Source: a virus. Taken from it: 64,000 bases of DNA. The position numbers and the translations under genes are program-made. The stretch spans positions 1 to 64,000 of IMG/VR virus record IMGVR_UViG_3300029286_000018. One strand, 5' to 3'. The notes beneath the pieces were generated by a model, which saw nothing but the letters and a program-made list of their open reading frames with translations, searched no databases and had not been told where the DNA came from. Of this stretch, positions 20,948 through 42,095 are shown one piece after another. How positions within the stretch are numbered: position 1 is the first letter of the stretch; each line of letters opens with the position of its first letter.

Positions 20948-23900
20948 ATGGCTAAAGCAGGTAGGCCAAAAAAGAGGAATGATTTGCTATTGGATCTTGA
21001 AAGCTTAAAGCAAGCTGTCAAGAATGTTGTCATTACTGCAACAGACACTGGACGTGCTCCAAGCATAATTGAGTTTGTAGAATCAGAAAAGTATTTAGGA
21101 TTGCCTGTTAAAAAACCAACTCCTATTGATCTATATCCTATGCAAAGAATAATGTTAAAAGCATTTTATTCTGGCAGTATAGGCAATGAAGATTTGTATT
21201 TAACAGACGAAGAGCTAGAGTTATGTAAGAATAACAATTTTGAAGATGAAGAAGTAAGTGATATCTTCATGAAAAAAGATAATGGAAAAATGAAGAGTGA
21301 GCTCGTGCTGGTTTGGGGGCGTCGTTGCTTGTCAGAAGATAACAATATAGTAGACATTAATACAAATAAAATTTATACATTTGGTTCAATGTGGGATTCT
21401 GGAAAGAGAACAATAGACTCATGGACTTATAATGAAAAAAGTAAGAGGATGGAATGTGTATCTAACTGCGATATTATATATCAGGGAATAAGAGATGTAT
21501 ATAAAGTTCAAACTTACAATGGTCATTTTATAGAGGCTACATCAAATCATCCTGTACTGACATCAAATGGATGGAAGCAAGTTAAAGATCTTGATATGAA
21601 TAATGATATGATAGCGATTAGCGAGTCTTTTCCATTTGGTTTAGAAGTAAAAACTGAAATGACGGAAGAACAAGCAAGACTTCTAGGATATATGATAGGT
21701 GATGGAAACTGTTCAAAAGCTGCAACATTTTTGACTTGTTCAAATAAGTCTGTATTGAAAGATTTCAAATTATGCTTGAGCGCACTTGGCGATAACATAA
21801 AAATTTTCAAAGATCCATGGACTGGAGCAAAAAGCAAAAAATATCAATATAAAGTAACTTCTAAGTATTATGAAAACGAGTCTTTAGGAGTAAAAGATTA
21901 TAGAAACAGAACTTTAACGCGTAGAAAAAAGAATTTGCTTATGCAGCTTTTGGTAAAGTATGGTGTAAGCGGTAAGACATGTCATCACAAAAGAACTCCA
22001 AAAGAAATACTCGAAGCACCTAAAAATATCGTCTCTAATTATTTAAAGGCTTTATTTAGCTGTGATGGATCTATTTATATTAAAAAGAGAAAGAAATATG
22101 TCAATCATTGTCAAATAGAATTTTGTACTGTAAATAAACAGCAGGCTTATGATGTTCAGTATTTATTAAGTAAGTTTGGAATATTATCAAGCCTAAGGTT
22201 AAAGTCTGGAAAAACTTTTATAGTTGATGAAAAGCATAATAAAAGAACTTATAACTCAAATTCTTATGTTGTGTCTTTTGTACGCAAGAAGTATATAAGT
22301 ATATTTTTACAAGAAATAGGTTTTATTGGTAAAGATAAAACAGTTAAATTATGCGAGTCTACGTTAAGTAAAATAATTGATAAAGACTCAAACCATGACA
22401 GCTCATTGCCGTATTCATGTTTTAATATAAGGTCTATAGAGCATGTCGGTAAAAAAAGAACATTTGATTTGCAGGTGAGTGATCAAAAGCATTTGCAAAA
22501 TTTTGTAAGTCAGGGATTCATATGTCACAATAGCGGCAAGGACTTCATTGTTTCAATATTGGCATGCTATGAGGCAGCAAAACTTCTTGAGTCTCCTTAT
22601 GGAGATCCATACAGGCTTTATAACTTGGGATCTGGTGCTCCTTTTACTATTTTAACTGTCGCAAATAGTTCGACACAGGCGCAAGTCTTATTTAACGAAA
22701 TAAAAGATAAAATCATTAATAGCAATTATTTTGCTGATAAAATTATACCAGAAGGTATTCTTTCTGATCAAATACATCTTCTGACTCCTGCTGATAAGAT
22801 TAAAAACGCAGAGCTGGAAGCTCGTGGTCTTCCTAAGAATCCAGGGTCTGTTATCATTCGATGCGGTCACAGTAACTCTGATTCATTGGCAGGTATTTCT
22901 TGCTATTGTCTTTTGCTGGACGAGATCGGTCTGTATAAGCAGACGGCGGGTAGTAGTGGTGGTGAAAGTATATATAGGACGCTTGCTCCTGCAACGGCTA
23001 CGTATGTTCGTAAACAAACTTCTATTGATCCATATGGCAACGAAGTGGTAAATGATATTTATGATGGTAAAATTATTTGCATTAGTTCTCCTCGTGGTAA
23101 GGAAGGAATTTTTTATGATCTTTATCGTAAGTCTTCATCAGTTTCTCATCGTGTGATGTGTAAGTTGCCAACGTGGATAGTGAATCCAACACAGACTAGA
23201 GAATTGCTTCGTGAAAAGTTCTCTAACATGACAGAAGAAGAATTCATGATGGAGTTCGGTGGGGAATTTAGTGGTACTGCTGGTCAAACATTCTTTACAA
23301 GAGATATGGTCGAAAAGTGTTTTTATAACAACATGAAGCTGAAAGATCATGGAGAAAGTGGTTTTAGTTATTTCTGTCATCTTGATCCAGCAACTTCATC
23401 TCATAATTATGCACTGTGTGTTTGTCACAGAGAAATGTTTTTAAATCCAGAGACACATAAAACGGATTTTAAAGTAGTAGTAGACCACCTTAAGTACTGG
23501 CAACCATTAGATGGCAAGCCTATTCTTAATGAAGAAGTTGATAATTATATAATTAATCTGAGTCGCAAATTTAATTTTGAAATGGTTACATTTGACCAGT
23601 GGAATTCACAACATAGTATTGATCATTTACGCAAACATAGTATTCCAGCAAAAATGACTCGGTTTACTAAAAGATATAAAATTATTATATATGATAATCT
23701 TTACGATTTAGCATCAGCATCACGTATTCAAATACCAAATCATGATCTTTTGCGAGATGAAATGCTTTATTTGCAGCGTCGTTACACCCCCACTGGTTAT
23801 AGAGTATTTGCTAAGAAAGATGGATTAGTCAAAACTGACGATGTTGTTGACGCCCTTGCAGGTGCAGCGTATGCCTGTATGCATGAAACGTTTGAACGTC

Positions 23901-24025
23901 TCCCTCAAGGATTATTAGTTAGAATGGGAGTAAATTCAATGACAGACGGAGTCGTATTCCGTGGGATGCAGGGTATTCCACTTGATTCTACTTCGGAACA
24001 AAGAAAATGGAGCACAAGATTCTAA
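20948..24025 (+). CDS. terL: Terminase large subunit with intein
   Basis: LYPMQ; Walker A GRR|SGK split by the intein; Walker B LLDE; ISSP; RNase H-like nuclease HLDPA, FDQW, DDVVDA. Confidence 0.92.
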   Translation: MAKAGRPKKRNDLLLDLESLKQAVKNVVITATDTGRAPSIIEFVESEKYLGLPVKKPTPIDLYPMQRIMLKAFYSGSIGNEDLYLTDEELELCKNNNFEDEEVSDIFMKKDNGKMKSELVLVWGRRCLSEDNNIVDINTNKIYTFGSMWDSGKRTIDSWTYNEKSKRMECVSNCDIIYQGIRDVYKVQTYNGHFIEATSNHPVLTSNGWKQVKDLDMNNDMIAISESFPFGLEVKTEMTEEQARLLGYMIGDGNCSKAATFLTCSNKSVLKDFKLCLSALGDNIKIFKDPWTGAKSKKYQYKVTSKYYENESLGVKDYRNRTLTRRKKNLLMQLLVKYGVSGKTCHHKRTPKEILEAPKNIVSNYLKALFSCDGSIYIKKRKKYVNHCQIEFCTVNKQQAYDVQYLLSKFGILSSLRLKSGKTFIVDEKHNKRTYNSNSYVVSFVRKKYISIFLQEIGFIGKDKTVKLCESTLSKIIDKDSNHDSSLPYSCFNIRSIEHVGKKRTFDLQVSDQKHLQNFVSQGFICHNSGKDFIVSILACYEAAKLLESPYGDPYRLYNLGSGAPFTILTVANSSTQAQVLFNEIKDKIINSNYFADKIIPEGILSDQIHLLTPADKIKNAELEARGLPKNPGSVIIRCGHSNSDSLAGISCYCLLLDEIGLYKQTAGSSGGESIYRTLAPATATYVRKQTSIDPYGNEVVNDIYDGKIICISSPRGKEGIFYDLYRKSSSVSHRVMCKLPTWIVNPTQTRELLREKFSNMTEEEFMMEFGGEFSGTAGQTFFTRDMVEKCFYNNMKLKDHGESGFSYFCHLDPATSSHNYALCVCHREMFLNPETHKTDFKVVVDHLKYWQPLDGKPILNEEVDNYIINLSRKFNFEMVTFDQWNSQHSIDHLRKHSIPAKMTRFTKRYKIIIYDNLYDLASASRIQIPNHDLLRDEMLYLQRRYTPTGYRVFAKKDGLVKTDDVVDALAGAAYACMHETFERLPQGLLVRMGVNSMTDGVVFRGMQGIPLDSTSEQRKWSTRF
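21326..22531 (+). mobile_element. Intein with LAGLIDADG homing endonuclease (402 aa)
   Basis: Starts CLSED, block B AT.NHP, LAGLIDADG motifs LLGYMIGDG and LKALFSCDG, ends FDLQV...NFV..G.ICHN followed by Ser; removal restores GRRSGK. Confidence 0.93.
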
Positions 24026-24026
24026 A

Positions 24027-25177: not shown

Positions 25178-25179
25178 TC

Positions 25180-25758: not shown

Positions 25759-25901
25759 CAAAACTAACATCTTCCAATTTTAAAAATAAACTTAAAAAAG
25801 TAAAGCAAAATAACAAGCGTAATTTATGCCGTTATTTTACTTTATTATATTCTGAAGATTACGCATCTGATCTAATCGGGCAAAAGTGCGAAAATGCATG
25901 A
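25755..25901 (+). CDS. Possible small basic protein (48 aa, TTG start)
   Basis: Open frame spanning the gap and overlapping both neighbours, GAGG upstream; region also holds an imperfect inverted repeat, so it may be non-coding. Confidence 0.3.
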   Translation: MTKLTSSNFKNKLKKVKQNNKRNLCRYFTLLYSEDYASDLIGQKCENA

Positions 25902-26685
25902 ATCTCTTTTGCGTGCAATCGAAGCAGAACTGACCTACTATGGCTATGTAATAGCTAATGGACAAGTTGTATCTTTAGACGGTTCTACATCAGACTCTAT
26001 TGATTTGTTTGAATCTAGAATGAAGATGTTGGAAGATGAACAGATAGAAAAATTAAAGAATTCTTGGGATATGGTCGAGACTCATGTCAAGGCTTTGGCT
26101 GGAGGAATTACAGTTCATGGTCTTCGTGTGCTTCAAAAGGCGATGATAAGACTTTATCGCAAGACGCACAATTCTGTAATCAATGTTAGTCCATCTGCTT
26201 CTCATATAAAAAAACTAACGCAAATTGCTGCGGATAGATTAAGTCAATCTACTGCAGAGCAGGCTGCTGTCGTTTTATCTATGATTGAGATATATGAATA
26301 TAACCTTAAAAAAATAGGATATTTGAAGTATCTCATCAAGAGACATAAAAGATCTTCTTCTCAGTTGATGCCAAAGATTGCATCTGGGACTGGCATTAGC
26401 ATGAACTCTTCCATTCAAGGCTCATATTCCAATCTTGATCTTCCTATGGCAGAAAGAGTATTTGAATGGAATGACATTAATGATGAGACATACGGCAGGC
26501 AGGACTTAAAGCAAAATCAGAGACGTTATAAATTGGGTCTAGAAGATAATGCACCAAGTGATACAAAAATTGGTTTTTATTGGCGTGAATTGCGCAATGA
26601 GCCGTACTTAATGCCAGGTGGCTCGCAGGAAGCTGGCTACGAGACTTCGTATCCATATAGAGCAAACATGTGGGGTAATCCATGA
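25894..26685 (+). CDS. Hypothetical protein, putative head protein
   Basis: Intact ORF; internal KIAS motif precedes a distinct C-terminal segment. Confidence 0.6.
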   Translation: MHESLLRAIEAELTYYGYVIANGQVVSLDGSTSDSIDLFESRMKMLEDEQIEKLKNSWDMVETHVKALAGGITVHGLRVLQKAMIRLYRKTHNSVINVSPSASHIKKLTQIAADRLSQSTAEQAAVVLSMIEIYEYNLKKIGYLKYLIKRHKRSSSQLMPKIASGTGISMNSSIQGSYSNLDLPMAERVFEWNDINDETYGRQDLKQNQRRYKLGLEDNAPSDTKIGFYWRELRNEPYLMPGGSQEAGYETSYPYRANMWGNP

Positions 26686-27089
26686 AAAAGCATAATCAAT
26701 CTTCTATTGTCGATTTTCTCATGCAGCGTGGAACATTCACGTTAAACGGCATGAATGTTATTAGCATAAATTCAAATCAAGCTAAAAATTTGTATTCAAT
26801 ATTTGTGTCTGCAATGAGCGAAGACGGTCATATTAAAATGGCAAAGCCTCTTGCAATGCCAACTACTGATTTTATTGAATTACAAATGGCTGGTCTCATA
26901 GCTGGCGATACATCAAATGTTCATATCACAAAAAATGGTAGTAAGTTACTTGAAAAAATGATTCTATCAGATGATGACTGCACTTTTGCATTAAAGACAA
27001 ATATTGGTGGTCAGTCTATGAATAAGAGTAGTATTGAATCGCATCAGGAAGGTTTATTGCCGAGAACAGCTGGCATATTCAGATTATGA
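26682..27089 (+). CDS. Hypothetical protein (winged-helix-like)
   Basis: L...GLI......ITKNG..LL pattern; ATGA coupling. Confidence 0.5.
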   Translation: MKKHNQSSIVDFLMQRGTFTLNGMNVISINSNQAKNLYSIFVSAMSEDGHIKMAKPLAMPTTDFIELQMAGLIAGDTSNVHITKNGSKLLEKMILSDDDCTFALKTNIGGQSMNKSSIESHQEGLLPRTAGIFRL

Positions 27090-27295
27090 TACAGTTGTAT
27101 TATAAATACAAAAATGAGAGAGATCGCTCTTCTTGTATGGATTTTTTAAAGCATAGTGGTTTTTGGAATGATATTGATATTGATATTTCAAGGTCTGTTT
27201 CTCATAGATTAACAATATCTATGGAGGCAGACGGTGCTGACGATTTTAGTATAAGGGCAAAATATAAAGGCTTTAAATTTCATGAAGTCGATTAA
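27086..27295 (+). CDS. Small hypothetical protein
   Basis: ATGA-coupled ORF. Confidence 0.5.
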   Translation: MIQLYYKYKNERDRSSCMDFLKHSGFWNDIDIDISRSVSHRLTISMEADGADDFSIRAKYKGFKFHEVD

Positions 27296-28136
27296 AGACA
27301 GCAAGAAAATTTTTGTAGAGTTAGCAAAGACTCCTTATAAACAGAGCCAAGGGCTTATGTTTAGAAAAGAACTTCAACCTGATTCTGGTATGTTGTTTGT
27401 TTTTGATGATCCAAAACCATTAAGCTTTTGGGGAATGAATACTTTTATCCCTCTTGATATTGCTTTCATTGATGAGCATGGAATTATAAAAGATTTAAAA
27501 AGAATTAAGCAGCATGATTTAACAAGCGTAAAATCAAGTTGTCCTTGCAAGTTTGCTCTTGAAGTTTCTGATGGATGGTTTAAGGAAAATGGATTCGTAG
27601 TAGGTGATTTCATGGAATCTTTGCTTAAAGATTCTGATGGTCATATTATGCTTATAAAAAATAAACTTAGTCAAAAAACTGCACAAGTTGTTCCTGATGA
27701 AGAGTTAGAAGATGTTGAGCCAGAAGTTGTCAGTCCAGAAAAAGAAGAAGAACCAATTCTGGAAAAAGAAAAACCTGAAGCTACACCTACTCCAGTCGCC
27801 CCTGAAGAAGTAGCTCCAGTCGCTGCACCTGAATTAGAAGAACCTGGTATATCTGTCCCAAAATTTGATAGCATTTTTGACGCATTGAGGTGGTCTATGG
27901 CTAATCTGCAAGTTATGAGAGTTACCTATAAAACAGTAAAAGGTCATGTCGTTACTAAGGACATTGAGCCTCATAAAGTATTTTTCTCTAGATCTAGCAA
28001 GAGACAGGTTTTAAAAGCATATGATGAAACGGCAGACCATGCCAGTCAATATATTATTATGAATATTGTTTCATATGGTTTTCCTGGAAGGAATTTTGCT
28101 CCTAGAAGCATATTATTATCACGGAGACTTATATGA
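27282..28136 (+). CDS. DUF192 domain + acidic linker + WYL-like domain protein
   Basis: ELA.TP....GLMFR..L....GMLFVF, FW..NT.IPLDIAF, ALEV (DUF192); C-terminal VTY....G.....IEP.......L.AYD (WYL-like). Confidence 0.7.
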   Translation: MKSIKDSKKIFVELAKTPYKQSQGLMFRKELQPDSGMLFVFDDPKPLSFWGMNTFIPLDIAFIDEHGIIKDLKRIKQHDLTSVKSSCPCKFALEVSDGWFKENGFVVGDFMESLLKDSDGHIMLIKNKLSQKTAQVVPDEELEDVEPEVVSPEKEEEPILEKEKPEATPTPVAPEEVAPVAAPELEEPGISVPKFDSIFDALRWSMANLQVMRVTYKTVKGHVVTKDIEPHKVFFSRSSKRQVLKAYDETADHASQYIIMNIVSYGFPGRNFAPRSILLSRRLI

Positions 28137-28735
28137 TAGAATTAATTAAAGAAATTATTTTAACAGCACAAAGCTTAGAGGTTAAGGGTCTAAGTAAGTA
28201 TGCAGATAAACTAGATTCTGCTGCAGAGTCTTTGACTTTGGTCAAGCAGGCTCAATACGATGGCATTCAAGGCTATTGGATTCGCAATGGGCGTTGTTTT
28301 GATAATTGCTATAGAGAAAAACGCACCAATCAAGCTAAGAAAAGCGCTCAAGAGGTATGGACTGAATGTCACAGTGAGTGGCTTGATTCTCTTATGAAAA
28401 ACAGTTCTGACTGGGATAAGTATGCTTCAGACTCTTCTGGAGAAATGCGAAAAGTGGCATCTGTAAAAACAGCTCAAGTTTCTGATGAAGTTATGAATAG
28501 TGAAATTATGGAAAAAGTTACTAATGGCATTTCTATTTCTGATGCTGTTCCAATGACTGTGGCAGAGCGCATGTTTAGCGTTCCCTGGAAATTGGCTCAA
28601 GTTAGCAATGATGTGCTTGATATTGCGCGTGAAGTTTCCGACAAGGATCCAGCAGTGTCTGAACGTCTTTACGGGTTTGCGGATAGAATTAGGCAAGAAA
28701 GTCTTAATAATTATAAAGACTGCCTGATATCATAA
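28133..28735 (+). CDS. Hypothetical protein, putative head protein
   Basis: Five KxA[SQ] motifs (KQAQ, KYAS, KVAS, KTAQ, KLAQ). Confidence 0.6.
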   Translation: MIELIKEIILTAQSLEVKGLSKYADKLDSAAESLTLVKQAQYDGIQGYWIRNGRCFDNCYREKRTNQAKKSAQEVWTECHSEWLDSLMKNSSDWDKYASDSSGEMRKVASVKTAQVSDEVMNSEIMEKVTNGISISDAVPMTVAERMFSVPWKLAQVSNDVLDIAREVSDKDPAVSERLYGFADRIRQESLNNYKDCLIS

Positions 28736-28768
28736 AGGAAAATGTAAAAAATTTAACAAACATAATAC
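28736..28768 (+). promoter_or_regulatory. Candidate late promoter AAGGA-N23/24-AATA
   Basis: Same spacing recurs at ~34275, ~43875, ~60631 and (AATG variant) ~36102, each upstream of a gene start. Confidence 0.4.
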
Positions 28769-28786
28769 ATTACGGAGGTATTAAAA

Positions 28787-29482
28787 ATGCAATTCTTTTC
28801 TAACAAAATTTATGTGAACGGTTCTAACAAGTCCTTTCAGGACATCATCAACGATGTGAAAGGCACAGGTATGGTCAAAGAAGCATCCAAGAAGATGCCA
28901 GCTGAGCTTATAGAGAATTTTAAGTCAGACAAGTCTGACAAGTCTGGCAAGTCAGGTGTTTCTGGCAAGTCAGGTGTTTCTGGCAAGTCTGGCAAGTCAG
29001 GCGTTTCTGGCAAGTCAGGTAAGTCAGAGCTAACTTCTGCTCAAAAGAAGCTTCCTCCTGCATTGCAGAAGGCAATAATGAACAAGAAGAAGGCAGATTC
29101 AGAATCTAGTCTTAAGATCGCTTCTATTGAAAAGGTTAACGATAATGAAGTTCTTTTAACCTTGGCTCAATGCAAGCCAATGTCTGGCAAGGTTGAATCA
29201 GACGTTGTTATCGATAGCGGTGATTTTGAAGAGTCTGACATGTCTGGTCACTCAGGCAAGTCAGGCAAGTCAGGTCATTCTGGAATGCATTCTGGAATGC
29301 ACAAGGAAGAGTGCGGTAGTAATATGGTGATGTCTGATTATTCTGCCAAGTCTGCTGGCGCAGAGCCAAAGTTTGTCAAAATTGCTAATCTAACAGACAA
29401 GCAAAAGGGACATTTCCGTAAGTATTGGGGAGATGTATGGCCGAAGGAATTTATTGACGCAATCTTATCCACACAGAACTGA
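28787..29482 (+). CDS. Low-complexity putative internal head protein
   Basis: GGAGG RBS; SGK/SGV/SGH tripeptide runs; KEAS, KIAS, KIAN motifs. Confidence 0.65.
   Translation: MQFFSNKIYVNGSNKSFQDIINDVKGTGMVKEASKKMPAELIENFKSDKSDKSGKSGVSGKSGVSGKSGKSGVSGKSGKSELTSAQKKLPPALQKAIMNKKKADSESSLKIASIEKVNDNEVLLTLAQCKPMSGKVESDVVIDSGDFEESDMSGHSGKSGKSGHSGMHSGMHKEECGSNMVMSDYSAKSAGAEPKFVKIANLTDKQKGHFRKYWGDVWPKEFIDAILSTQN
28924..29027 (+). repeat. 9-bp coding tandem repeat (SDK/SGK/SGV)
   Basis: TCTGGCAAG / TCAGGTGTT units; a second run at ~29243-29302. Confidence 0.8.
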
Positions 29483-29491
29483 GAGGTTTGA

Positions 29492-30103
29492 ATGGCAATT
29501 CTGCCTGTAGGAATTAGAAAACAAATGCAAACACAGATGTTCAGGACGGCGCAGCAATCTGCGCCTCCTGAACCATCTTCTGTTTATATGCAAACCGGAG
29601 CATCTGCTCCAATGAGTTCGTCTCAGAATCTAAATGACGATTCTTCTAGCAAATCTGGAGACATTGACATTCGAGAGTTTGTCACTAATGTTCTTGTACA
29701 AGAGTTAGGAGTCCCTCAAAGAATTCTTGATAAAAAACTCGATAATTTAGTTAGTTATTCAATTGATTCAAACGGCGAAGTGAAAGGCTTTTTTATAATT
29801 CCAGTTCATACTGGTCAAAAGAAAGTCACACTCAGTGAAGCTCAAAAAATTGTTTCTTCTTTCTGCTCACAGTTTAATGTTGATTGTGATATTGAACACG
29901 GTAAAAATTTCAAAGTTAATTTTAAGAGTGTCCCCAAGTCAAAGCCAGCAGATATGAGTGGAGATGATGAGGGTAGCTTGCAGTTCGTGCCAGATGAAAA
30001 ATCTGGTACTAAAAAGGTTGCTTCAAGTATTTTTGAAGAACAGTTCGAAATGCGCAAGAATATGCTTGCAGATACGCTCAAAAGACTAGGATACACCAAA
30101 TGA
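29492..30103 (+). CDS. Hypothetical protein, putative head protein
   Basis: GAGG RBS; RTAQ and KVAS motifs flank a globular core. Confidence 0.6.
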   Translation: MAILPVGIRKQMQTQMFRTAQQSAPPEPSSVYMQTGASAPMSSSQNLNDDSSSKSGDIDIREFVTNVLVQELGVPQRILDKKLDNLVSYSIDSNGEVKGFFIIPVHTGQKKVTLSEAQKIVSSFCSQFNVDCDIEHGKNFKVNFKSVPKSKPADMSGDDEGSLQFVPDEKSGTKKVASSIFEEQFEMRKNMLADTLKRLGYTK

Positions 30104-30744
30104 TTTTTAAGAATAAAGACTTCAGTATATCTTCTTTGTTTGGAGAAAAGCCTCAACCGAAAGAGTCAAAACCAGTTGACCCAGCTATTTTGGAGGCTTT
30201 TTTTAGAAAGCAAACTAGCAAGTCTGCTGGTGGGGATCAAGGTGGATTAATATCCAAAAGTATATTGAGATCATCTTCATCGCAGGACTTAAATGTTCCT
30301 GGAGAAGCTTTTGTTGGTAAAAGTTCTGCTCGTTCAATTTTTTCTCCACAGTCTACCCCAATTGAAAAATCTGTTGATCGTTCAGTTTCTCGTATCTCTG
30401 AGTTTCTTCCTGATATTAAGCAAGAAGTCCCATCAGATGTTGCTGATGACTTGATGAAGTTCAAGGGTAATTTTTCTGAAGCTTCAAAAGCTGCAGGTTC
30501 TCACGGTTCTGTGCGCACAGATCGAATAAGTATGTTTGACGAGGGTGCTTTTGATAGATTGCAGAAACCAGAGACAGAGAAGAAAGCAGCAAAGGTTGTT
30601 GAAGAAAAGAAAATTTCTAAGGCGATGAGAGCGACAGATATTGCTAACTCAATGTGGTCAAAACTTTCTGATGACAATTCAGCAAAAGGCAAGATGTCGA
30701 GAGAGCGTGCAATCGATAAATTATTTGGAGACAATAATGCCTAA
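30100..30744 (+). CDS. Hypothetical protein
   Basis: ATGA-coupled intact ORF, Ser/Lys-rich. Confidence 0.6.
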   Translation: MIFKNKDFSISSLFGEKPQPKESKPVDPAILEAFFRKQTSKSAGGDQGGLISKSILRSSSSQDLNVPGEAFVGKSSARSIFSPQSTPIEKSVDRSVSRISEFLPDIKQEVPSDVADDLMKFKGNFSEASKAAGSHGSVRTDRISMFDEGAFDRLQKPETEKKAAKVVEEKKISKAMRATDIANSMWSKLSDDNSAKGKMSRERAIDKLFGDNNA

Positions 30745-31795
30745 ATTTAATCTTTTTAAGTTGGCACAAGCACAGCCTGGCCAGTTTAATATGAGCCAGC
30801 CAGTGATTCAAGGAGCCATGGAATCTGTTACTCCAGAGGGAACTACTGAGGAGTCGCTAGAAGATGGTGCTGGTATGGGCATGGAAGGTGATACTCAGCT
30901 GTTGATGAATCCCGGTCAGTCTGATGTTGACTCAGAAATAGAGACTTTGTCAGTTCCACTATTTGAAAACCATGTGCAGATGTATGAAAAGTTAAAATCT
31001 ATGTCTACCGGAGATACAAAATCTTCGATGAACGCTGCATGGAATAATTATTTTGCACCTACTATCGGTGAAACTGAAATTGGCGATGATTTTAAATCTG
31101 GTTTGGGACAATTTTTTGACACTGATCCTGATTCTGAAGATGCAGTTGATATTGCTAATCGCCTTTATGACATGTACGCCAAGATTCATCCTTCCCATAA
31201 GGGTTCAGAGGCTGAGCAAGAGACAATTAATGAAGAGTTAGATGTAGCTACTGCTAGTACATTAGATGTCATCAAAATGGCTCAAAAAATGGCTAAGTCA
31301 CAAGTGCAAAAAATGGCAACAGGATCTTTTAATCTTAAGAAGATTGCTCAGCATAAGGGACTTGACTCTTCTAATGTTATTACTGGTCCATCTCAGACAT
31401 CTTTAAGCCCATTCACTCGTGACATTCAGGGCGGTATGCACTTAATCGAGCAGAACAAAGGGTTTGGACTTAAGATTGATGACATTCTTGACATTAACTT
31501 TGAAGCAATTTGGCGTGGTAATATTATGGATAAATATAATCAGCCATATCGTGACGAACAAGGTAATTATGTTGGTGGTTATATAAATAGAAGATTTGAA
31601 GTTGATCGTAATATTCCAGTTGGTAATAATTTGCAGCTTCTTCCAGGAACCCGTCATCGTCCATGGATGCCAGAATATTCTATTCTTGAGTCTCGCATGG
31701 AGTCTGCTAGAGGAAATAAGGATAAGTTAATTAATCCTTTTACTTTTGCAAAAGTCTCTATTGGCCCATTTAACTTAAAAAAAAAGAGCAAGTAA
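30737..31795 (+). CDS. Putative head protein upstream of portal; ends in slippery A-run
   Basis: GGAG RBS before ATG 30737 (MPKFNLFKLAQ); FNLKKIAQ internal; ends TTA AAA AAA AAG AGC AAG TAA. Confidence 0.7.
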   Translation: MPKFNLFKLAQAQPGQFNMSQPVIQGAMESVTPEGTTEESLEDGAGMGMEGDTQLLMNPGQSDVDSEIETLSVPLFENHVQMYEKLKSMSTGDTKSSMNAAWNNYFAPTIGETEIGDDFKSGLGQFFDTDPDSEDAVDIANRLYDMYAKIHPSHKGSEAEQETINEELDVATASTLDVIKMAQKMAKSQVQKMATGSFNLKKIAQHKGLDSSNVITGPSQTSLSPFTRDIQGGMHLIEQNKGFGLKIDDILDINFEAIWRGNIMDKYNQPYRDEQGNYVGGYINRRFEVDRNIPVGNNLQLLPGTRHRPWMPEYSILESRMESARGNKDKLINPFTFAKVSIGPFNLKKKSK

Positions 31796-32004
31796 AAATT
31801 AAGACTGCCAGTAAGTCTGGTTACAACAGAGCTCTGGACAGAGCTTTCTCTTTTGGGGCACCCGATAAAAGTACTATGTATGCAAGGCAGAAAAAAGTCT
31901 GCCCTGTATGCAATTCGGATAATTCTGCGGACACATCTAAAAACCAAGGAAAATGTGTCAACTGCGGATTTGATTTAAGTAAAGTTCAGGTCACAAGAGT
32001 ATAA
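31786..32004 (+). CDS. -1 frame extension encoding a Zn ribbon (not in ORF track)
   Basis: Open frame EQVKIKTASKSGYNRALD...KVCPVCNSDN...GKCVNCGFDLSKVQVTRV starting at A_AAA_AAG (31780-31786) and ending 3 nt before the portal ATG. Confidence 0.6.
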   Translation, partial: EQVKIKTASKSGYNRALDRAFSFGAPDKSTMYARQKKVCPVCNSDNSADTSKNQGKCVNCGFDLSKVQVTRV

Positions 32005-32007
32005 TAA

Positions 32008-34260
32008 ATGGCAAAACAAACTAAAACACCTCAAGATAATATCGTTGAGCTCAATATTACTGACAATAAAAGATATGCTTCATCTGGCTCTGTGCATCTA
32101 CCATTGACAAAAGCTGCACAATATATGGGTGGTAATGCTGGTACGATTTTTACACAGCCAATGTTTTTCAGTCCGTTGCATACGCCACAAAATTGGCAAA
32201 TTGCAAGTAAGCGCAAAGAAGTTTATCAATGGGCTCGTTTCTATTATGAGAATGAACCAAAGGCTGCTGCAGGTATAGACTTCTACGCTGGTTTCCCAAT
32301 GAATGGCTTATCTTTGGAATGCAAGGACAAAAAGATTCTTGCATATTACGAGCATACAATTGAAAAAATAAATCTTGAGTATTGGCTAAGAAAAATAAGC
32401 CATGAATACTTTTTGCTTGGTGATGCATTTGTGTTTACGGAAATTGCATGTCCAGTATGTAATGGGGTAGGTCATCTTTCTAACGGCAATATATGTAATC
32501 ACCCTGATGGTACTATCAAGAGACTTTTAGTTTTAAACCCAGATTTTATTGAAGTTCAAAGTACTCAGTTAGCTGACGAGCCAAGCGTTGCTCTTATCCC
32601 AGATGATGACTTAAAGAGAGTTTGTCAGCAAAAGAAGCCTAAGCAAGTTTATGATCGTATTCCAGAAAATATAAAAGAGTACGTTATGTCTGGTAGGCCA
32701 ATCCCATTAAGTCCTAGATGTATTAGTCACTTAAGACATAAGGGCTCACCATACGGTACTTATGGTGAAAGTTTGTTGCGTAGACTATTTACTATTATTG
32801 CTTATAAAACTAAATTAATGACAGCAAACTGGATTATGGCAGAGCGTCATATTCTTCCTGTAAGAGTTGTTAAAGTTGGTAATGCAGAGCGTCCTGCTTC
32901 TGAAATTGACATTGCAGACGTTCAGGGTCAGCTCGCTGCTGTTGCAAACGATCCTAATTTGACTATTGTTACACACCATGCATTTGAAATGGATTTCATA
33001 GGAGCTACAGGCAAGATACATGATATCAGCAATCAGATGGAGATGATTGGTAAAGAAATGCTCGATGGTCTTATGCTTCCCCAGACGTTGTTGAATGGCG
33101 AAATGGCTGCATATAGTGCTGCTGCAGTGGGCGTTGAGACTCTTATCCGTAGATTAGAAACATGGAGACTAGAGCTTGGCGAATGGGTTGCTAAAAATGT
33201 ATTCCTGCCAATAGCACAGATGCAGGGTTTTGTTGATACTCAAAAGAGCAAGCTAGTTGGTGAAACAGTTTGGCTATACCCTACAATCAAATGGAACGAC
33301 TTACGCCTAAGAGACAACTCTCAGTATTTGCAGTCACTCATGCAGCTCCACGACAAAGGTCTTATTTCAACTCAGAAATTGCTTACTGAATTCAATATTG
33401 ACTTTGATCAAGAAGTTAATCGCTTGCGGGAAGAACAGATCACTGCAGGTAAGGGCGGTCAGGTCGTTGGCGGACCTCCGGGTGGCGGCGGCGGTGGTCT
33501 TGACCTTGGCTTGGGCGGTGCTCCTAGCGCTGGTGGACTTGATCTTGGCTTAGGTGGCGGTGGTGGTCTTCCTCCTGGGCTGGGAGCGCCTCCTGGTGGC
33601 GGTCCTCCGGGTGGCGATGCCCTAATGGGTGGCCAACCACCAATGGGGGCACCAATGGGAGCGGCAGCAGCTTCTGAGGAAGATATGACCAAGGTCGCAC
33701 AAATGATGCCAGATCCATCTGGTATGTCTATAGAGTCTGGCCGTATCTATAAAAAGGGCAGGGAGCCAAAAAAGAAAAAGGACGAACAGGTTGACCAGTC
33801 TCAAAAAATATTTCTAACAAAGCCTGAGCAAAAGCTTTATCAAATAATTCGTTCTTTAAATATTCCATTGCGTTTGTTTGCTCAATATCAGCAGCATGTT
33901 GCTGGCAATCAGAATGCGTTTATGCTTGACTTTGCATTCCCGGATATTATGTTAAATTTGGAAGCTGATGGAGATTTCTGGCACTCAGACTTTGATGCTT
34001 TAGAAAGAGATAAGGAACGTGATCTAAAGCTTGCATCGCTCGGATGGCGTGTGGTTCGTATACGCGAAAGTGCGCTAAATACAAACGCTCAAATGGTAAC
34101 GCAGGTTGTTATAAATAATATTAAAGAAGCAATTGCACAGCGTAAGGCAATGATGGCTAAACGTGCAAGCGTTGAGGACGAAAGTATTGCCTACGAAGAC
34201 GGAGAAGACGTAAAAATTGCGTTTCAAAATTTAATATATCATAATGAGGATAATGATTAA
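32008..34260 (+). CDS. Portal protein with Gly/Pro linker and C-terminal DUF559/Vsr-like endonuclease domain
   Basis: Position between terL and protease; portal-like EYFLLGDAF, LNPD.IEV, HL....SPY..YG.S; C-terminal TKPE...LDFAF...LEADGDFWH...D.ERD..L..LGWRVVRI.E. Confidence 0.8.
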   Translation: MAKQTKTPQDNIVELNITDNKRYASSGSVHLPLTKAAQYMGGNAGTIFTQPMFFSPLHTPQNWQIASKRKEVYQWARFYYENEPKAAAGIDFYAGFPMNGLSLECKDKKILAYYEHTIEKINLEYWLRKISHEYFLLGDAFVFTEIACPVCNGVGHLSNGNICNHPDGTIKRLLVLNPDFIEVQSTQLADEPSVALIPDDDLKRVCQQKKPKQVYDRIPENIKEYVMSGRPIPLSPRCISHLRHKGSPYGTYGESLLRRLFTIIAYKTKLMTANWIMAERHILPVRVVKVGNAERPASEIDIADVQGQLAAVANDPNLTIVTHHAFEMDFIGATGKIHDISNQMEMIGKEMLDGLMLPQTLLNGEMAAYSAAAVGVETLIRRLETWRLELGEWVAKNVFLPIAQMQGFVDTQKSKLVGETVWLYPTIKWNDLRLRDNSQYLQSLMQLHDKGLISTQKLLTEFNIDFDQEVNRLREEQITAGKGGQVVGGPPGGGGGGLDLGLGGAPSAGGLDLGLGGGGGLPPGLGAPPGGGPPGGDALMGGQPPMGAPMGAAAASEEDMTKVAQMMPDPSGMSIESGRIYKKGREPKKKKDEQVDQSQKIFLTKPEQKLYQIIRSLNIPLRLFAQYQQHVAGNQNAFMLDFAFPDIMLNLEADGDFWHSDFDALERDKERDLKLASLGWRVVRIRESALNTNAQMVTQVVINNIKEAIAQRKAMMAKRASVEDESIAYEDGEDVKIAFQNLIYHNEDND

Positions 34261-34319
34261 AATATTTCAAAACAAAGGAAAAATTTTAATTATTATAAAA
34301 TGAATACCTTAGATTCATT

Positions 34320-34733
34320 ATGATAAAAATAGCTGGTAAGCGTATAAAAGATCGCCATATTAATTGGCAAGAGCACTACTCGGAAAGAACAGAACCTTTG
34401 CGTGATCGTTATTGGTCTGAATTAGGCACTGGTTCTTATCGTAGATGGGAAGGTCATGACTATACAACGAATAGTGATTATTACGTTGTTTGCAGTCCTG
34501 CTCAAACTAAATACGGAGAAAAATCTTACTTTGCTGGTATTAAAAAATTACCACCCGCTTCGGTTCGTGAAACTACAAAAGTGTATTCTCCATATGGTAA
34601 GTACTTTAGTAGCATGGCTGCTGCTTTGAGTTTTTTAAAAGACAAGTATGGTGTACCTTGGCCAAAAGATCAAGTGAATTACATGTCAGCGCAATTGCAA
34701 AATATTGAAATCCCTAGATTCGTGAAGGCATAA
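34320..34733 (+). CDS. Hypothetical protein, putative head protein
   Basis: Starts MIKIAG; lies between portal and protease. Confidence 0.6.
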   Translation: MIKIAGKRIKDRHINWQEHYSERTEPLRDRYWSELGTGSYRRWEGHDYTTNSDYYVVCSPAQTKYGEKSYFAGIKKLPPASVRETTKVYSPYGKYFSSMAAALSFLKDKYGVPWPKDQVNYMSAQLQNIEIPRFVKA

Positions 34734-34739
34734 AATATT

Positions 34740-37700
34740 ATGGATAAATTTACAATAACTACTGAACGTCAAATTGAACCTTTGAACATTCCACAGCATT
34801 GGGATGAAATAAATATTTCTCCTATTACAAAATATGCATCAAATGATAAGGTCTTTGAGGAGAGAGTGAAGGGCATGGATTTAGGCGGCTTTAACATTGT
34901 AAAAGAAGTCAAAGAACATCCAGAGCATTTATTTGTAAAAGTATTTGCAATTAAGAAAGATGAAGTAAATGATAATGGAGATTACTTTAGTGAAAAAGAA
35001 CTAAAGAAAGCTGCAAAAACATTTATTGGTGTTCCTGTATTTGTCAATCATCAGAACGATGATATTGAAAAAGCAAGAGGAAAAGTTGTACATGCTTGGT
35101 GGGATGATGAGCGTGGTGGTATTTATACAATTAATATGGTTGATAAAGTTGCATATCCACGTCTTGCAAGAGGAATAGAGGCTGGATACGTCACAGGTAG
35201 CTCCATGGGGTGTTCAGTCAAGTATAGCGCCTGTTCAGTTTGCCATACTCGTGCAGCAAATGCAAAAGAATATTGCTCACATATTAAGGAAAGAAAAAAG
35301 AAGAATTTTACTGGAGAACATGAGTGTCTTTATCACAAAAGCGCTAACTCTGGTGATGAACCATGTCCTGTTTGTGGTTCTGAAAAAGGAAAGAAGAAAT
35401 TAAACAAGTACGCAAGTCAACAGATATTTGAGCATAATTATGATGTTAAGTTTATTGAGGATAGCTTTGTAGTTAATCCTGCATGTCATGATTGCTTGGT
35501 AAGTGACATCATAAATCCAAGCGCTTTGTTTAAGAAAGTTGCCGACATTAGAGAGACTATTTCAAAGCTTGGTTTTGTAGTCGAATCAGATTCATCTTTT
35601 GGCATAGAATGCTCTACTGGCCAGTGCGGCTTACACAAGGCTGCTGGTAAGCAGGAGTTAAATGAACTTAATGATGCCATGAATCAATTGGAGCGTGTCG
35701 CTCGTTCAATGATGGCTCAGAAAAATAAGGTTAGCTTAGAGTATGTTTCTGATATTATTAAAGTTACTGCAGATATACAGAAAATATCAGATGAATTAGT
35801 TGAAATGGGTTATGCAGTATTACCAAGTCCAACTTCTGAGCAGGTTGCTTATGGAACAAACGTGCAGGCAAGTCCTGTTGTTGGTCCATCTTCTGCAGTA
35901 CAAACACCTATTTCAGCTATGCCAAAGCCGTCTTCAGGAGCTCAGCCCTCTGCTCAGCCATCATTAGCAATGCCACCACAACAGGCTGCTCCGATGATGA
36001 AAACTGTTCCCGGCACAGTGTCTCCACAGGTTCAGGATCTTGGTGATGACATTGGACGAGTAACAAGACCAAATTTTGTTCCAGTTCGTGCAGATTCCGC
36101 AAAGGATTTTATTAAAATATCTAATAGTATAATGAACAGGCTCTCGGAAATTGCGGGAGTTTTAAATATTAATGGAGAGTTTATGTCTGAAAATTCAGGA
36201 TACAAATACACACAAGGTGATGATACAATTGTAATTTCCTCTGATGTAGATGGGGAAATTCACGTTGCTCATCTGAACCAGGATCGCTTGCTCAAGTGGG
36301 CAAGCATAGATTCATTTGATAATGAAACTCAAAGTTTAATAACTCACAATCCGCAACAAGCCGCTCGTAAAATACTTTCTTCATATATGAACAACAATAA
36401 TTCAGAGGAGTCAATTATTTCCATGGAAAACAACAATAAGATCGCACAGTCTCAGACTAATGATGTACACGAAGTTACCACCGAATCCCAACTCAATAGT
36501 GTTAAGGGTCTTGGCAGGCGTCAAGGAGAAGCCCCCACTGGTACTACTGAGAGCAAAGAGCAGCTTGGCTCTGGCAAGGTTTACTTCAAGGACGTGAACA
36601 GCGAGTCTCCCACCGCTCATCGTGGAACCTATGATTCCATCGTTGAGTCTACTCTGAATTCTAAGACTGGTGGATACATGGCGAGATGGGGTTCTTTCCC
36701 AGAGGTCATTACTGAGGCTCAATGGGACGACTTGTCTCGCGAAGTTAAGGCCAACATTCCTTCTGACTGGACATCCGTTGCTAAGGAAGGTCAGCTCGAT
36801 GCCTTGCGCTCCACATTCAGCTGGTCAGAGCCAACAGCAACCACAGAATCACAACTGTCAGGAAAGATGAAAAAGAAGGCTTCTGCCAAGGATCTTATTA
36901 AGGTCGCTCAGTCTGCAGTTGCTGATGCCATGGCATTCTATGGTGTTGGAATTGAAGACATTCAGAAGAGTGTCCAATTTGTGAACTCAGATTCTTCTCG
37001 TAAGTTTAAGTCAAAGGTTATGGTTGCACTAAATGCTGCTCCATGGGCAGTTAACGCACGTAAGGCTTACAATAGTCGTCTTGCTTCATTCTCTAAGGTT
37101 GCTTCAGAAGTTTATGGACTTGAGCCAGTTGATGCAGTTCTTGCAGCAATTGGAGACAGTCTCGACAACAATGGCGCAGAGGACGTTCTCGCTGCAGTTA
37201 CATTTGTTGCAGGCAACAAGTTGGCAATGCAGCAGGCAGAAGATTTGGCAGTTGAAAGATTTGAGTCTACTGTTTCTGGAAATAGTAATGAAGAAGACAT
37301 GTTCCGTCAGGCCTTCAGTGAGCTTTCTCTCCCAGAGGATGGTCTTATTAAGGTTTGTATGAGCGCTCAAGATGATTTGGGAATGGATGTTTCAGGAGAC
37401 AAGTCATTCATTGATGCAGTTCATAAGTTTGCGCAGAATATGGTCAGCGAAAATCTTGGCAAGCAAGTTGAAGTCGTTCCAGTCGCAGTTGATGTTGATG
37501 AGGAAAACGGACTTGTTGAAGCTACTTGCAAGCTTGCATCTAAACTCACTGATCAGGAAAAACAAGCTTTTAGCAAGTGGGCATCTTCCGCTGAGGAAGC
37601 AACCAAGCAGGCTGAAGTAATAGAAGAAGTCGAAGAAACCAAGTTTGAGAATAAGCGTGCTTCCTTGATTAAGGAACTTAATCAACTAGAGAAGCGTGCT

Positions 37701-41151: not shown

Positions 41152-41222
41152 TCGTAACTATATATTGGTATTCTCGTTGAGATCAATATATATAATATAA
41201 AATTTTGAAAGGATTTACAAAC

Positions 41223-42095
41223 ATGTCACTAAATAAAGATGGTTTGACCTATGATGAGAAAGAGGCAGTAATTGCCCAAGCTCTCGCTACAGAAGAGGGC
41301 CGTACTGCTCTCGCACAGGCAATGGTGGAGCCAATCCGCCGTTCTTTGGAGTATCAAGCTGTTGGTCGTAAGTTGCTCATGGTTGACGAGCTCCCACAAG
41401 GTGCTCTTCCTCGCTATGAGCGCGACGTAGCTTCTACCGCCACTGTCATTGCTCGTCAGGGTGCAGTCCCTGACCAGATTCAGCAGGGCGAAGAAGTCCT
41501 TGTTCCAACATTCGAGATTGCTGCTCACCCAACAATCCGTTTGTCTGAAATCAAGGCTCGTCGTTTCTACATTGTTGACCGCGCCCAGATCAAGGCAAAG
41601 GAAGCCATTCAGAAGGAAGAAGATCGCAATATCTTCAACGCTCTGATTGCTGCTGCCGATACCCGTAATGATCAGGTCGTTGGCAACAGTGGTGATCTTA
41701 CTACTGATTCACTTAACGTTGCATACCGTTTGATTGAGACCCACGATCTTGTCGCAAGCAAGGTTGTTGCTCACCCACTTCAGTATGCTCGCTTCCGCGT
41801 TTTCGGCAAGACTTTCTACGATGAGGCTACAACTCGTGAAATCCTCACCACTGGTCTCTATGGTCACCTCTGGACCGCTGACATTCACGTCAGCTCCCAG
41901 CTTGACCCTCAGACCATATTGGTGTGCGCTTCTCCCGACACCGTTGGAGCCTTCCCAATCCGCCAGGACATCACTGTCCTCCCAGCGGACGATCCGAAGA
42001 AGCTTCGCCTCGGTTGGGTAATTTATGAAGAGATCGGCATCGTTGTAATGAACGATTACGCTCTCTCGAAGATTGAAGTTTACCGCACAAGCTAA
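41223..42095 (+). CDS. Major capsid protein (HK97 fold)
   Basis: GR.ALAQAM.EPIR..L.YQ.VGRKLL.VDELPQG...RY..D, P.FEIA..P.I...EI..RRF..VDRAQ, GWV.YE.IG; high-expression codon bias; AAGGA RBS. Confidence 0.88.
   Translation: MSLNKDGLTYDEKEAVIAQALATEEGRTALAQAMVEPIRRSLEYQAVGRKLLMVDELPQGALPRYERDVASTATVIARQGAVPDQIQQGEEVLVPTFEIAAHPTIRLSEIKARRFYIVDRAQIKAKEAIQKEEDRNIFNALIAAADTRNDQVVGNSGDLTTDSLNVAYRLIETHDLVASKVVAHPLQYARFRVFGKTFYDEATTREILTTGLYGHLWTADIHVSSQLDPQTILVCASPDTVGAFPIRQDITVLPADDPKKLRLGWVIYEEIGIVVMNDYALSKIEVYRTS

Follow-up and report, generated by a model that had tools for sequence, protein, structure and literature searches.

The open reading frame (ORF) at the centre of the window, by which we mean the whole 64,000-nucleotide stretch of DNA that was analysed, encodes a portal protein that carries a nuclease domain at its C-terminus. 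The source is an uncultivated giant phage of aquatic, specifically marine, origin; its record spans 94 kb with a completeness of ~23% according to CheckV, contigs bearing related portals span 250–550 kb, and the closest isolate is phage G. The portal ORF lies within a head-morphogenesis module, with the large terminase gene upstream and the genes for the protease/scaffold and the major head protein downstream (Table 1). To our knowledge, portals are viewed as passive rings that act as sensor and valve, and the DNA cuts made during packaging are all credited to terminase or to separate accessory proteins.

Table 1. Features of the portal–linker–nuclease ORF and of neighbouring head genes (positions in the window; amino acid numbers refer to the respective protein).
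Feature	Position	Strand	Basis
Portal–linker–nuclease ORF, 750 aa	32008..34260	+	ORF call; portal and DUF559 matches
Disordered N-terminal leader, aa 1–57, with candidate maturation cleavage site T-K35-A-A-Q38	32008..32178	+	AF2 pLDDT <50
Portal body, aa 58–483, ending in C-terminal crown helices, aa 438–483	32179..33456	+	phrog_16240, AF2, Foldseek
Zn-knuckle-like insertion in portal body, C148-P-V-C151...C163-N-H165	32449..32502	+	Conserved ligand positions
Disordered Gly/Pro(/Met)-rich linker, aa 484–560	33457..33687	+	AF2 pLDDT 35–43; composition
Candidate protease site K562-V-A-Q565 at linker/nuclease boundary	33691..33702	+	Motif
Basic motif R-I-Y-K-K-G-R-E-P-K-K-K-K, aa 579–591, immediately N-terminal of nuclease fold	33742..33780	+	Recurrence in family
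Vsr/DUF559-fold nuclease domain, aa 601–717	33808..34158	+	PF04480, AF2, structural matches, conserved active site
Candidate protease site K718-R-A-S721, directly C-terminal of nuclease	34159..34170	+	Motif
Acidic disordered C-terminal tail, aa 722–750	34171..34257	+	pLDDT <50 for aa 724–750; charge
Prohead protease (N-terminal part) fused to scaffold-like protein, 1933 aa	34740..40541	+	phrog_18299
Major head protein	41205..42095	+	phrog_2522, E 7.6e-63
Large terminase split by LAGLIDADG intein (about aa 156–528)	20948..24025	+	phrog_2, phrog_9, phrog_17415; Pfam Intein_splicing, LAGLIDADG_3

The portal body was matched by the PHROG family phrog_16240 ('portal protein') with an E-value of 2.8e-42, and Pfam Portal_Mu (PF06074) scored 29.6 bits on the ORF, above its cut-off of 23.9. 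In an AF2 model the body was predicted with pLDDT mostly >85. Foldseek matched it to solved portals with E-values of 1.6e-12 to 1e-8; the best match was that of the Pakpunavirus P7-1 (E 1.6e-12), and the portals of HFTV1, G20c, T4, lambda, HK97 and SPP1 were also recovered. As modelled, the body has the canonical portal fold of wing, stem, clip and C-terminal crown. A preliminary description of this DNA had pointed to a Zn-binding insertion (CPVC..C.H) within the body, and this insertion is both real and clade-specific: the CxxC...CxH arrangement was found in 211 of 224 portals with the nuclease versus 2 of 15 portals without it, and its four putative Zn-ligand positions are at least 90% conserved in relatives.

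Residues 483–579, which follow the crown, were disordered in the AF2 model (pLDDT <50). The Gly/Pro linker that had been described here at ~75 aa is present, measures about 80 aa and is disordered as modelled; its richest 60-aa window starts at aa 488 and is 67% Gly+Pro, and linkers across the family have a median length of 69 aa and a Gly+Pro content of 56%. Ahead of the nuclease fold, the majority of the family members sampled share a K-I-x-K-[KR]-G-K motif, and the 40 aa N-terminal of the fold are net positive in 91% of the family. At the far end of the ORF, the last 37 aa have a net charge of about −7. The median C-terminal tail in the family measures 45 aa, 60% of members have a tail with net negative charge, and for most of the distant members sampled the tail is about 5 to 23 aa long. 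AF2 did not place the tail confidently on the nuclease (tail pLDDT 46–58), and a tail docked there as an inhibitor consequently found no support.

The nuclease domain was detected by DUF559 (PF04480) over aa 603–705, with 28.8 bits for the whole protein and 32.3 bits for the domain alone (cut-off 20.6), and PF18741 reached 34.5 to 37.4 bits on it, slightly below its cut-off of 38.2. The core was predicted with pLDDT 95–98. Structural comparison of the model gave Z-scores of 12.5 with I-Bth0305I (3r3p), 12.2 with the DUF559 protein 3hrl and 10.5 with Vsr (1cw0), at rmsd 1.9–2.3 Å over 93–101 residues, and the Foldseek probability for the matches to this fold was 1.00. What had been read from the letters as a PD-(D/E)xK-type domain therefore does model as a nuclease, namely as the Vsr/DUF559 fold, a divergent form of PD-(D/E)xK, with an intact active site. 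Its motifs D641, E652-x-D654-G-x-x-W658-H659 and D668..R671-D672 are all present, and in relatives they are invariant or at least 90% conserved. Of the active-site residues (E607, D641, E652, D654, H659 and D668), E607/D641/D654/H659/D668 align to E170/D196/N208/H213/D222 of I-Bth0305I and to E25/D51/H64/H69/D97 of Vsr (catalytic residues from PMC3239194). Vsr proper has a structural zinc site and is a free-standing repair enzyme that partners a Dcm methylase; the domain is not a Vsr orthologue, because it has no Cys ligands around G-D-F-W-H-S-D and is fused to a portal.

The tetrapeptides K-V-A-Q and K-R-A-S, on either side of the nuclease, lie where the preliminary description had placed them (from nt 33691 and nt 34159, respectively), and it had proposed that proteolysis at these sites releases the domain. 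The portal has four copies of the pattern that they share, K-x-A-[S/Q], where 0.35 would be expected, a count reached by none of 300 shuffles. The pattern occurs 21 times in the protease/scaffold ORF against 1.9 expected, and six and three times in two further head-module ORFs (0.23 and 0.19 expected). The four head-module ORFs with the greatest enrichment thus exceed expectation about tenfold or more, and just two further instances were found in the whole window outside positions 23961–40541. The enrichment is repeated across 80 related loci, and includes the homologous protease/scaffold ORF of most of them. The head maturation protease family phrog_18299 matches aa 76–192 of the 1933-aa ORF (E 8.7e-13), making this protein the likely source of the cleavage activity, and K-x-A-[S/Q] is plausible as the site recognized by the protease. 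Of 220 family members, 127 have the motif in the N-terminal leader that precedes the conserved body (consensus TKxAQ), and 115 have it within the tail, after the nuclease. At the linker/nuclease boundary it was present in only 33 (15%), all from the closer relatives sampled.

These counts bear on a model in which the protease frees the nuclease at K-V-A-Q and K-R-A-S, so that ~12 copies of a fragment of ~150 aa are ejected with the DNA and attack host DNA or that of a competitor. The motif is indeed strong and specific to the head module, two sites flank the nuclease in the source phage, and K-[VT]-A-Q is conserved in place at the boundary in relatives down to about 73% identity. Moreover, capsid-internal effectors that are processed and injected exist, such as the T4 internal proteins and Alt and the ejection proteins of phiKZ and SPN3US, and we count these in favour of the model. 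However, by the same motif logic, the rarity of the boundary site compared with the leader and tail sites would leave the nuclease permanently tethered in most of the clade and unable to leave the capsid. Proteolytic release would thus be at best lineage-specific: the candidate cleavage motif on which the earlier proposal was built stands, but the site needed for release is confined to a minority of the family, and we consider ejected cargo an unlikely, though not far-fetched, explanation for the domain.

An alignment of 36 diverse members showed that E607, D641, E652, H659 and D668 are invariant and that D654, R671 and D672 are at least 90% conserved. The motif E-x-D-G-x-x-W-H was found in 116 of the 120 best 90%-cluster homologues, and in the four exceptions an intein interrupts it. 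Between sequences that share only 20–40% identity in the rest of the domain, every metal-binding and general-base residue is invariant. This is the pattern expected of catalysis, and it argues against a non-cutting DNA-binding or structural module, such as a holder of the genome end at the portal or an organizer of the DNA spool. A binding role would suit the conserved stretch of basic residues that precedes the fold and the position beside the channel; in addition, binding-only Vsr-fold domains exist, and the fold search also matched RAP/FASTKD-type RNA-binding modules. On balance we regard a module that does not cut as very unlikely, and we infer active, metal-dependent cleavage or nicking of DNA with low sequence specificity.

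The fusion pervades the clade. PF04480 was present in all 120 of the best 90%-cluster homologues, both linker and nuclease were seen in each complete 50%-cluster representative whose portal body is at least about 37% identical, and the complete portals of the clade yielded no empty (nuclease-less) allele. Outgroup portals, including phage G gp14, have a Gly/Pro tail only and no nuclease, and Pfam detected no other C-terminal domain on the long-tailed outgroup portals P0253, P0255 and P0260. Pairwise identities of portal and nuclease are correlated (Mantel r 0.749; none of 2000 permutations as high), which points to co-divergence of the two parts through vertical inheritance. Thirteen representatives have an intein in the E-x-D-G motif of the nuclease, beginning with Cys right after the motif Glu. 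In the 12 of these for which the downstream junction was found, the inteins are 361–389 aa long and end in Asn (His-Asn in nine), followed by the +1 Cys, giving the order Glu, intein, Cys-Asp-Gly; a Pfam check for the motif intein was made on P0097. The invariant or nearly invariant active site, the co-divergence and the placement of inteins exactly inside E-x-D-G together point to a working, vertically inherited domain.

A captured homing endonuclease had been offered as an alternative. This fits the origin of the domain, which is most closely related to EDxHD/Hef homing endonucleases: when 50,697 deposited phage genomes were searched, the domain matched only I-Bth0305I and Hef-like homing endonucleases, at 23–32% identity and never as a portal fusion. 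The only free-standing close homologues, in a word-index search limited in length and reach, were six short proteins that are apparent fragments of fused genes. As an account of the present state, in which a selfish element would sit in frame on an essential gene, cut portal alleles without the insert and spread by gene conversion, it misfits a domain that is fixed and co-diverges with its portal. The genome and the clade are certainly rich in mobile elements, namely the terminase intein, inteins at several portal sites in relatives and a free-standing HEG-like gene (42217–43866) that adjoins the capsid gene. However, searches with Pfam and PHROGs found no N-terminal NUMOD/HTH or other DNA-recognition module between portal and nuclease, where there is only the disordered Gly/Pro linker and a 13-aa basic patch. 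Furthermore, the absence of empty alleles leaves no homing target, and the catalytic motif is intact in every member checked, with no decayed copy of the kind that a homing cycle leaves. Selfish homing is thus highly improbable, and with neither a DNA-binding module nor empty alleles, the nuclease domain looks domesticated. A recent copy of the neighbouring HEG-like gene was also considered as its source and rejected, as the two share only a 22-aa, motif-level match (E 0.003).

Finally, the chance that the fusion is an artefact, whether through misassembly, loss of a stop codon or faulty gene calling, is negligible. In one related locus (L078) the linker does contain a TGA in frame, and two short representatives have ends that resemble frameshifted linker sequence. 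However, the identical 750-aa protein occurs on 27 contigs (JGI, ENA, Logan), portal and nuclease share one frame in 77 of 80 independent related IMG/VR loci, and the architecture is common to more than 100 50%-identity clusters, which rules out misassembly and stop-loss and shows that the fusion is conserved in related portals.

The explanation that we favour, which as a whole we hold to be about evenly poised between right and wrong, is an ancestral fusion whose nuclease stays tethered and acts at the portal, combined with trimming by the prohead protease. According to this model, a homing endonuclease of the EDxHD/Hef type (Vsr fold) would have supplied the catalytic domain that was joined, in an ancestor of the clade, to the end of a pre-existing Gly/Pro-rich portal tail. 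In all solved portals known to us, the C-terminal crown faces the capsid interior; since the linker exits the crown, twelve nuclease domains would lie within ~10–25 nm of the point where the DNA channel opens into the capsid. The presence of twelve copies on the crown, within the head, would follow from the modelled canonical fold combined with general knowledge of portal topology. Tethering would supply the 'targeting' of a low-specificity nuclease, which in most of the clade would remain attached and work on portal-proximal DNA while packaging proceeds or once it is over. The portal would be trimmed by the prohead protease at its K-x-A-[S/Q] sites in the N-terminal leader and in the tail directly after the nuclease, and loss of the often acidic tail may activate the enzyme only within the maturing head. 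More distant members lack this tail together with its K-x-A-S site, so activation by tail removal cannot hold clade-wide. In the source phage and its close relatives, the extra K-V-A-Q could free ~12 copies able to exit with the DNA. Activity, cleavage and location of the nuclease domain are what we infer for all members alike.

Further difficulties weigh against the tethered-fusion model. A nuclease placed amid packaged DNA should harm the genome unless the enzyme is inhibited or structure-specific, or the genome is protected. In addition, the terminase seems to span its own nuclease-domain region, with PHROG terminase profiles reaching aa 984 of 1025, so that no missing packaging activity is evident; the idea that the portal nuclease substitutes for a missing terminase nuclease is unsupported. 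A PDB sequence search with the C-terminal half of the terminase gave no match. A more specific version of the model, in which a capsid-internal enzyme is armed by the prohead protease and works on DNA passing the portal's inner mouth, either nicking the incoming half-megabase genome against torsional strain or serving as a filter that degrades unprotected foreign DNA (of host, satellite or competitor) on its way into the capsid, strikes us as distinctly unlikely. If true, such protease-armed nicking or filtering would constitute a new step in tailed-phage packaging, performed by the portal itself.

It appears that a widespread clade of aquatic giant phages keeps a catalytically intact-looking nuclease on the portal end that is predicted to face the capsid interior, and its retention would imply a further step in packaging, genome protection or infection. 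The fusion would also be a clean example of domestication, in which a structural gene has taken over the catalytic domain of a homing endonuclease. K-x-A-[S/Q] offers a candidate maturation-protease code, with weaker hints of it in phage G, the sole cultivated relative.

Literature searches on portals with DUF559/Vsr and on jumbo phages and megaphages turned up neither an account of the fusion nor cleavage-site data for phage G. The closest portal from an isolate is gp14 of phage G (Donellivirus gee, Bacillus/Lysinibacillus), with 31% identity over aa 51–477 (E 2e-67). Phage G has a similar head module, and gp14 has a long Gly/Pro-rich tail as well as K-x-A-S motifs close to either end of the protein, at aa 55–58 and 625–628; however, gp14 is 649 aa long and lacks both the nuclease domain and the CxxC...CxH insertion. 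For the nuclease itself, I-Bth0305I (3r3p) is the best structural match (rmsd 2.2 Å over 96 residues), and I-Bth0305I/Hef-like enzymes are the best sequence match in deposited phages (31.6% identity), with the same catalytic residues. EDxHD homing endonucleases have N-terminal NUMOD/HTH DNA-binding modules and are encoded within introns or inteins or by mobile genes that stand alone (PMC3239194), whereas the portal version is the catalytic domain alone, carried on a structural protein and fixed in the clade. Vsr (1vsr/1cw0) and the bacterial DUF559 protein 3hrl have the same fold, G-x-x-W-H motif and catalytic Asp/His/Asp residues, but the portal nuclease differs from Vsr in having no Cys/His zinc site and in not being a free repair enzyme. 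I-Bth0305I likewise lacks the Vsr-type Cys/His zinc site (PMC3239194). In the automatic annotation by JGI, these portals are labelled 'very-short-patch-repair endonuclease'.

Nucleases are also associated with the portal vertex in other phages. T4 endonuclease VII binds the portal gp20, and HK97-type HNH proteins adjoin the terminase and portal genes. The T4 head-completion nuclease gp4 is a TnsA-like REase-fold DNase needed for packaging (PMC7824862). All of these resemble the present case in being accessory nucleases with a physical or genetic link to the portal vertex. They are, however, separate polypeptides with other folds, located outside or on the neck side of the portal, whereas the nuclease described here is covalently joined to the portal, presumably on the end within the capsid. 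Head proteins of the MuF/SPP1 gp7 type carry C-terminal toxin or nuclease fusions, are capsid-internal and portal-associated, and are thought to be packaged; there, the carrier is an ejected minor head protein and not the portal, and its domains are polymorphic, unlike the one conserved nuclease of this clade.

Over its N-terminal two thirds, the 750-aa protein hit phrog_16240 (E 2.8e-42) and, over cut-off, Pfam Portal_Mu, both of them portal families; its best isolate relative was phage G gp14 (31% identity across aa 51-477). A full-length AlphaFold2 model based on 42 sequences comprised a confident portal body (aa 58-483), matched by many solved portals (Foldseek, best E 1.6e-12) and ending in the crown helices (aa 438-483), followed by a disordered region (pLDDT <50 over aa 483-579). 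The C-terminal domain beyond it was again modelled with confidence (aa ~601-723), and the tail as disordered. A basic patch, R-I-Y-K-K-G-R-E-P-K-K-K-K, is conserved upstream of the nuclease, with the family motif K-I-x-K-[KR]-G-K. The linker end (window 33640-33780, + strand, and relatives) often reads M-G-A-A-A-[A/S/G/Q], with the family motif ~10-25 residues further on.

The C-terminal domain exceeded the Pfam threshold for DUF559. A separate model of aa 562-750 (core pLDDT 95-98) superimposed on the I-Bth0305I catalytic domain (Z 12.5; rmsd 2.2 A over 96 residues), the DUF559 protein NGO0050 (3hrl; Z 12.2; 1.9 A over 93 residues) and DNA-bound Vsr (1cw0; Z 10.5; 2.3 A over 101 residues). 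By fold, the domain belongs to the PD-(D/E)xK superfamily, in its Vsr branch, as the preliminary description had anticipated. Residues were mapped using a HMMER alignment to 3r3p, interpreted with the I-Bth0305I paper (PMC3239194). E607, D641, D654, H659 and D668 correspond to I-Bth0305I E170, D196, N208, H213 and D222, and to Vsr E25, D51 (a metal ligand), H64, H69 (the general base) and D97; E652, at the position of Vsr F62, matches an extra acidic residue conserved in the homing family. The alignment to these catalytic residues bears out the D, E-x-DG-x-x-WH and D..RD motifs earlier described as intact.

The fusion is kept in related portals. All 120 best homologues (90% clusters, with best local alignments down to ~58% identity; JGI, ENA, NCBI, Tara and Logan contigs of up to 516 kb) carry PF04480 together with portal similarity. 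The portal body alone was also searched against 1.84 billion 50%-cluster representatives, and 145 newly returned ones were scored with body and nuclease HMMs. Among these, every complete portal at >= ~37% body identity had a G/P-rich linker and then the nuclease, whereas below ~36% the nuclease was absent, several portals still ending in a G/P-rich tail. The outgroup phage G gp14 (L002:5791-7737) likewise has a ~130-aa G/P-rich C-terminal tail but no nuclease. Portal 3' end and nuclease shared one frame at 77/80 related IMG/VR loci; two others were cut by a contig end, and in one (L078) a lone in-frame TGA interrupts the linker. Past this TGA (L078:10534-10536), which could be a sequencing error, readthrough/recoding or a genuine split, the nuclease follows without a change of frame, and K-F-A-S comes soon after. 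Two 'short' clade portals have ends resembling frameshifted linker sequence. A zinc-type insertion in the portal body, C148-x-x-C151...C163-x-H165 (at least 90% conserved), tracks the nuclease, being present in 211/224 portals with it and 2/15 without, both of the latter probable frameshifted clade members; insertion and nuclease together mark the clade.

The window covers the initial 64 kb of a 94,349-bp IMG/VR virus record, ~23% complete according to CheckV. The terminase intein, at ~aa 156-528, is of LAGLIDADG type (Pfam Intein_splicing, 45.8 bits; LAGLIDADG_3, 62.4 bits), and neither Pfam nor PHROG matched the 137-aa ORF after the portal.

Features of the portal locus, with counts of K-x-A-[S/Q], the candidate recognition motif of the prohead protease
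Feature	Position	Strand	Observed	Expected
Large terminase with intein, 1025 aa (head module)	20948-24025	+		
Several small ORFs between terminase and portal (head module)				
200-aa protein	28133-28735		6	0.23
ORF	30641-31795		3	0.19
Portal-linker-nuclease ORF, 750 aa	32008-34260	+	4	0.35
137-aa ORF between portal and protease/scaffold gene	34320-34733	+		
1933-aa protein, N-terminal head-maturation protease, scaffold-like	34740-40541	+	21	1.9
Major head protein	41205-42095	+		
549-aa homing-endonuclease-like protein	42217-43866	+		

In each of the four head-module ORFs richest in the motif, all within 23961-40541 (+), enrichment was ~tenfold or more and 0/300 shuffles reached the observed count; just two copies lay in all window ORFs outside that stretch. 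The giant homologous ORF was likewise enriched at most of the 80 related loci, and the distribution fits a maturation-protease recognition motif. Suggestive only are the K-x-A-S sites of phage G, near the ends of gp14 (K-M-A-S, aa 55; K-I-A-S, aa 625) and near the C-terminus of its head protease gp19 (K-V-A-S and K-I-A-S; L002:10295-11197). Within family portals, the motif occurred in an N-terminal leader before the conserved body in 127/220 (consensus TKxAQ) and immediately past the nuclease in 115/220. Post-nuclease tails had a median of 45 aa and were net negative in 60% of members, shrinking to ~5-23 aa in most of the distant ones sampled.

Going by the topology of solved portals, the linker probably exits the crown into the capsid interior, which would place twelve nuclease domains near the inner channel opening. 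Our preferred reading, to which we give roughly even weight, is a working nuclease or nickase of low specificity: the tether would localise it at the portal, the prohead protease would trim the portal and possibly arm the nuclease, and the nuclease would work on DNA there, perhaps also being released in this subclade. Any such activity inside the capsid faces one main difficulty, namely how damage to the packaged genome is avoided. Alternatively, the nuclease may be a released, ejected effector, one of the roles raised with the earlier proposal that proteolysis at K-V-A-Q and K-R-A-S frees it. The motif signal behind that proposal is real, and the candidate site K562-V-A-Q may also permit release in this phage; however, a site between linker and nuclease was found in only 33/220 portals, all among the closer relatives sampled, and by motif logic the nuclease would stay on the portal in most clade members. 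Release is thus lineage-specific at best, and we consider an effector role unlikely.

A non-catalytic DNA-binding or structural module seems very unlikely beside the conservation of the active site. Across a 36-sequence alignment in which nuclease domains were 20-78% identical pairwise, E607, D641, P645, E652, H659, D668 and G679 were invariant, and T604, Q626, D654, R671, D672, W680 and R684 were at least 90% conserved. E-x-D-G-x-x-W-H was found in 116/120 close homologues; the four apparent exceptions, and nine further representatives, carry an intein exactly between the motif Glu and the next residue. All 13 begin with Cys, and the 12 with a located downstream junction span 361-389 aa with a final Asn before a +1 Cys (His-Asn in 9/12), so splicing would restore E-C-D-G-x-x-W-H; a motif intein was checked against Pfam in the homologue P0097. 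Inteins typically occupy conserved functional sites of needed proteins. The clade portal gene is an intein hot spot, with recurrent sites that map near aa 76, 93, 333 and 370 of the window's portal and at the nuclease E-xDG junction (homologues P0121-P0240), and some genes hold several, giving precursors of 2-3 thousand aa (P0168, 3003 aa; P0167, 2602 aa).

A homing endonuclease that is still selfish would account for the sole domain matches in 50,697 deposited phage genomes, which were I-Bth0305I and Hef-like homing endonucleases (23-32% identity) from Campylobacter, Rhizobium and other phages. None of these matches was portal-linked, however, and no nuclease-less allele was found within the clade. 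Homing endonucleases have a NUMOD/HTH region, whereas the portal nuclease has solely linker and basic patch upstream. Inheritance is vertical across the clade: portal-body and nuclease pairwise identities were correlated (Mantel r 0.749, reached by 0/2000 permutations), which fits one ancient fusion. A currently selfish element is therefore highly improbable, and the evidence is best read as domestication of a catalytic domain. The free-standing homing-endonuclease-like gene directly after the major head gene is a relative at motif level only; its product (phrog_3339, E 5e-80) oddly pairs a weak Vsr/MTES_1575-type core (LDIY...IEFNGSYWHS) with a GNAT acetyltransferase domain (aa 382-486). Finally, an artefactual fusion can be set aside almost completely, since 27 contigs (longest 281 kb) record the identical protein and relatives conserve the fusion, which is thus not unique to this assembly.

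Automatic pipelines name these portals 'very-short-patch-repair endonuclease', and no description of a portal-nuclease fusion was found in the literature searched. The nearest functional analogies include endo VII, which binds gp20, and HK97-type HNH proteins, both separate packaging-associated nucleases. T4 gp4 is another (PMC7824862). In contrast to these separate proteins, the nuclease described here is fused to the portal itself.
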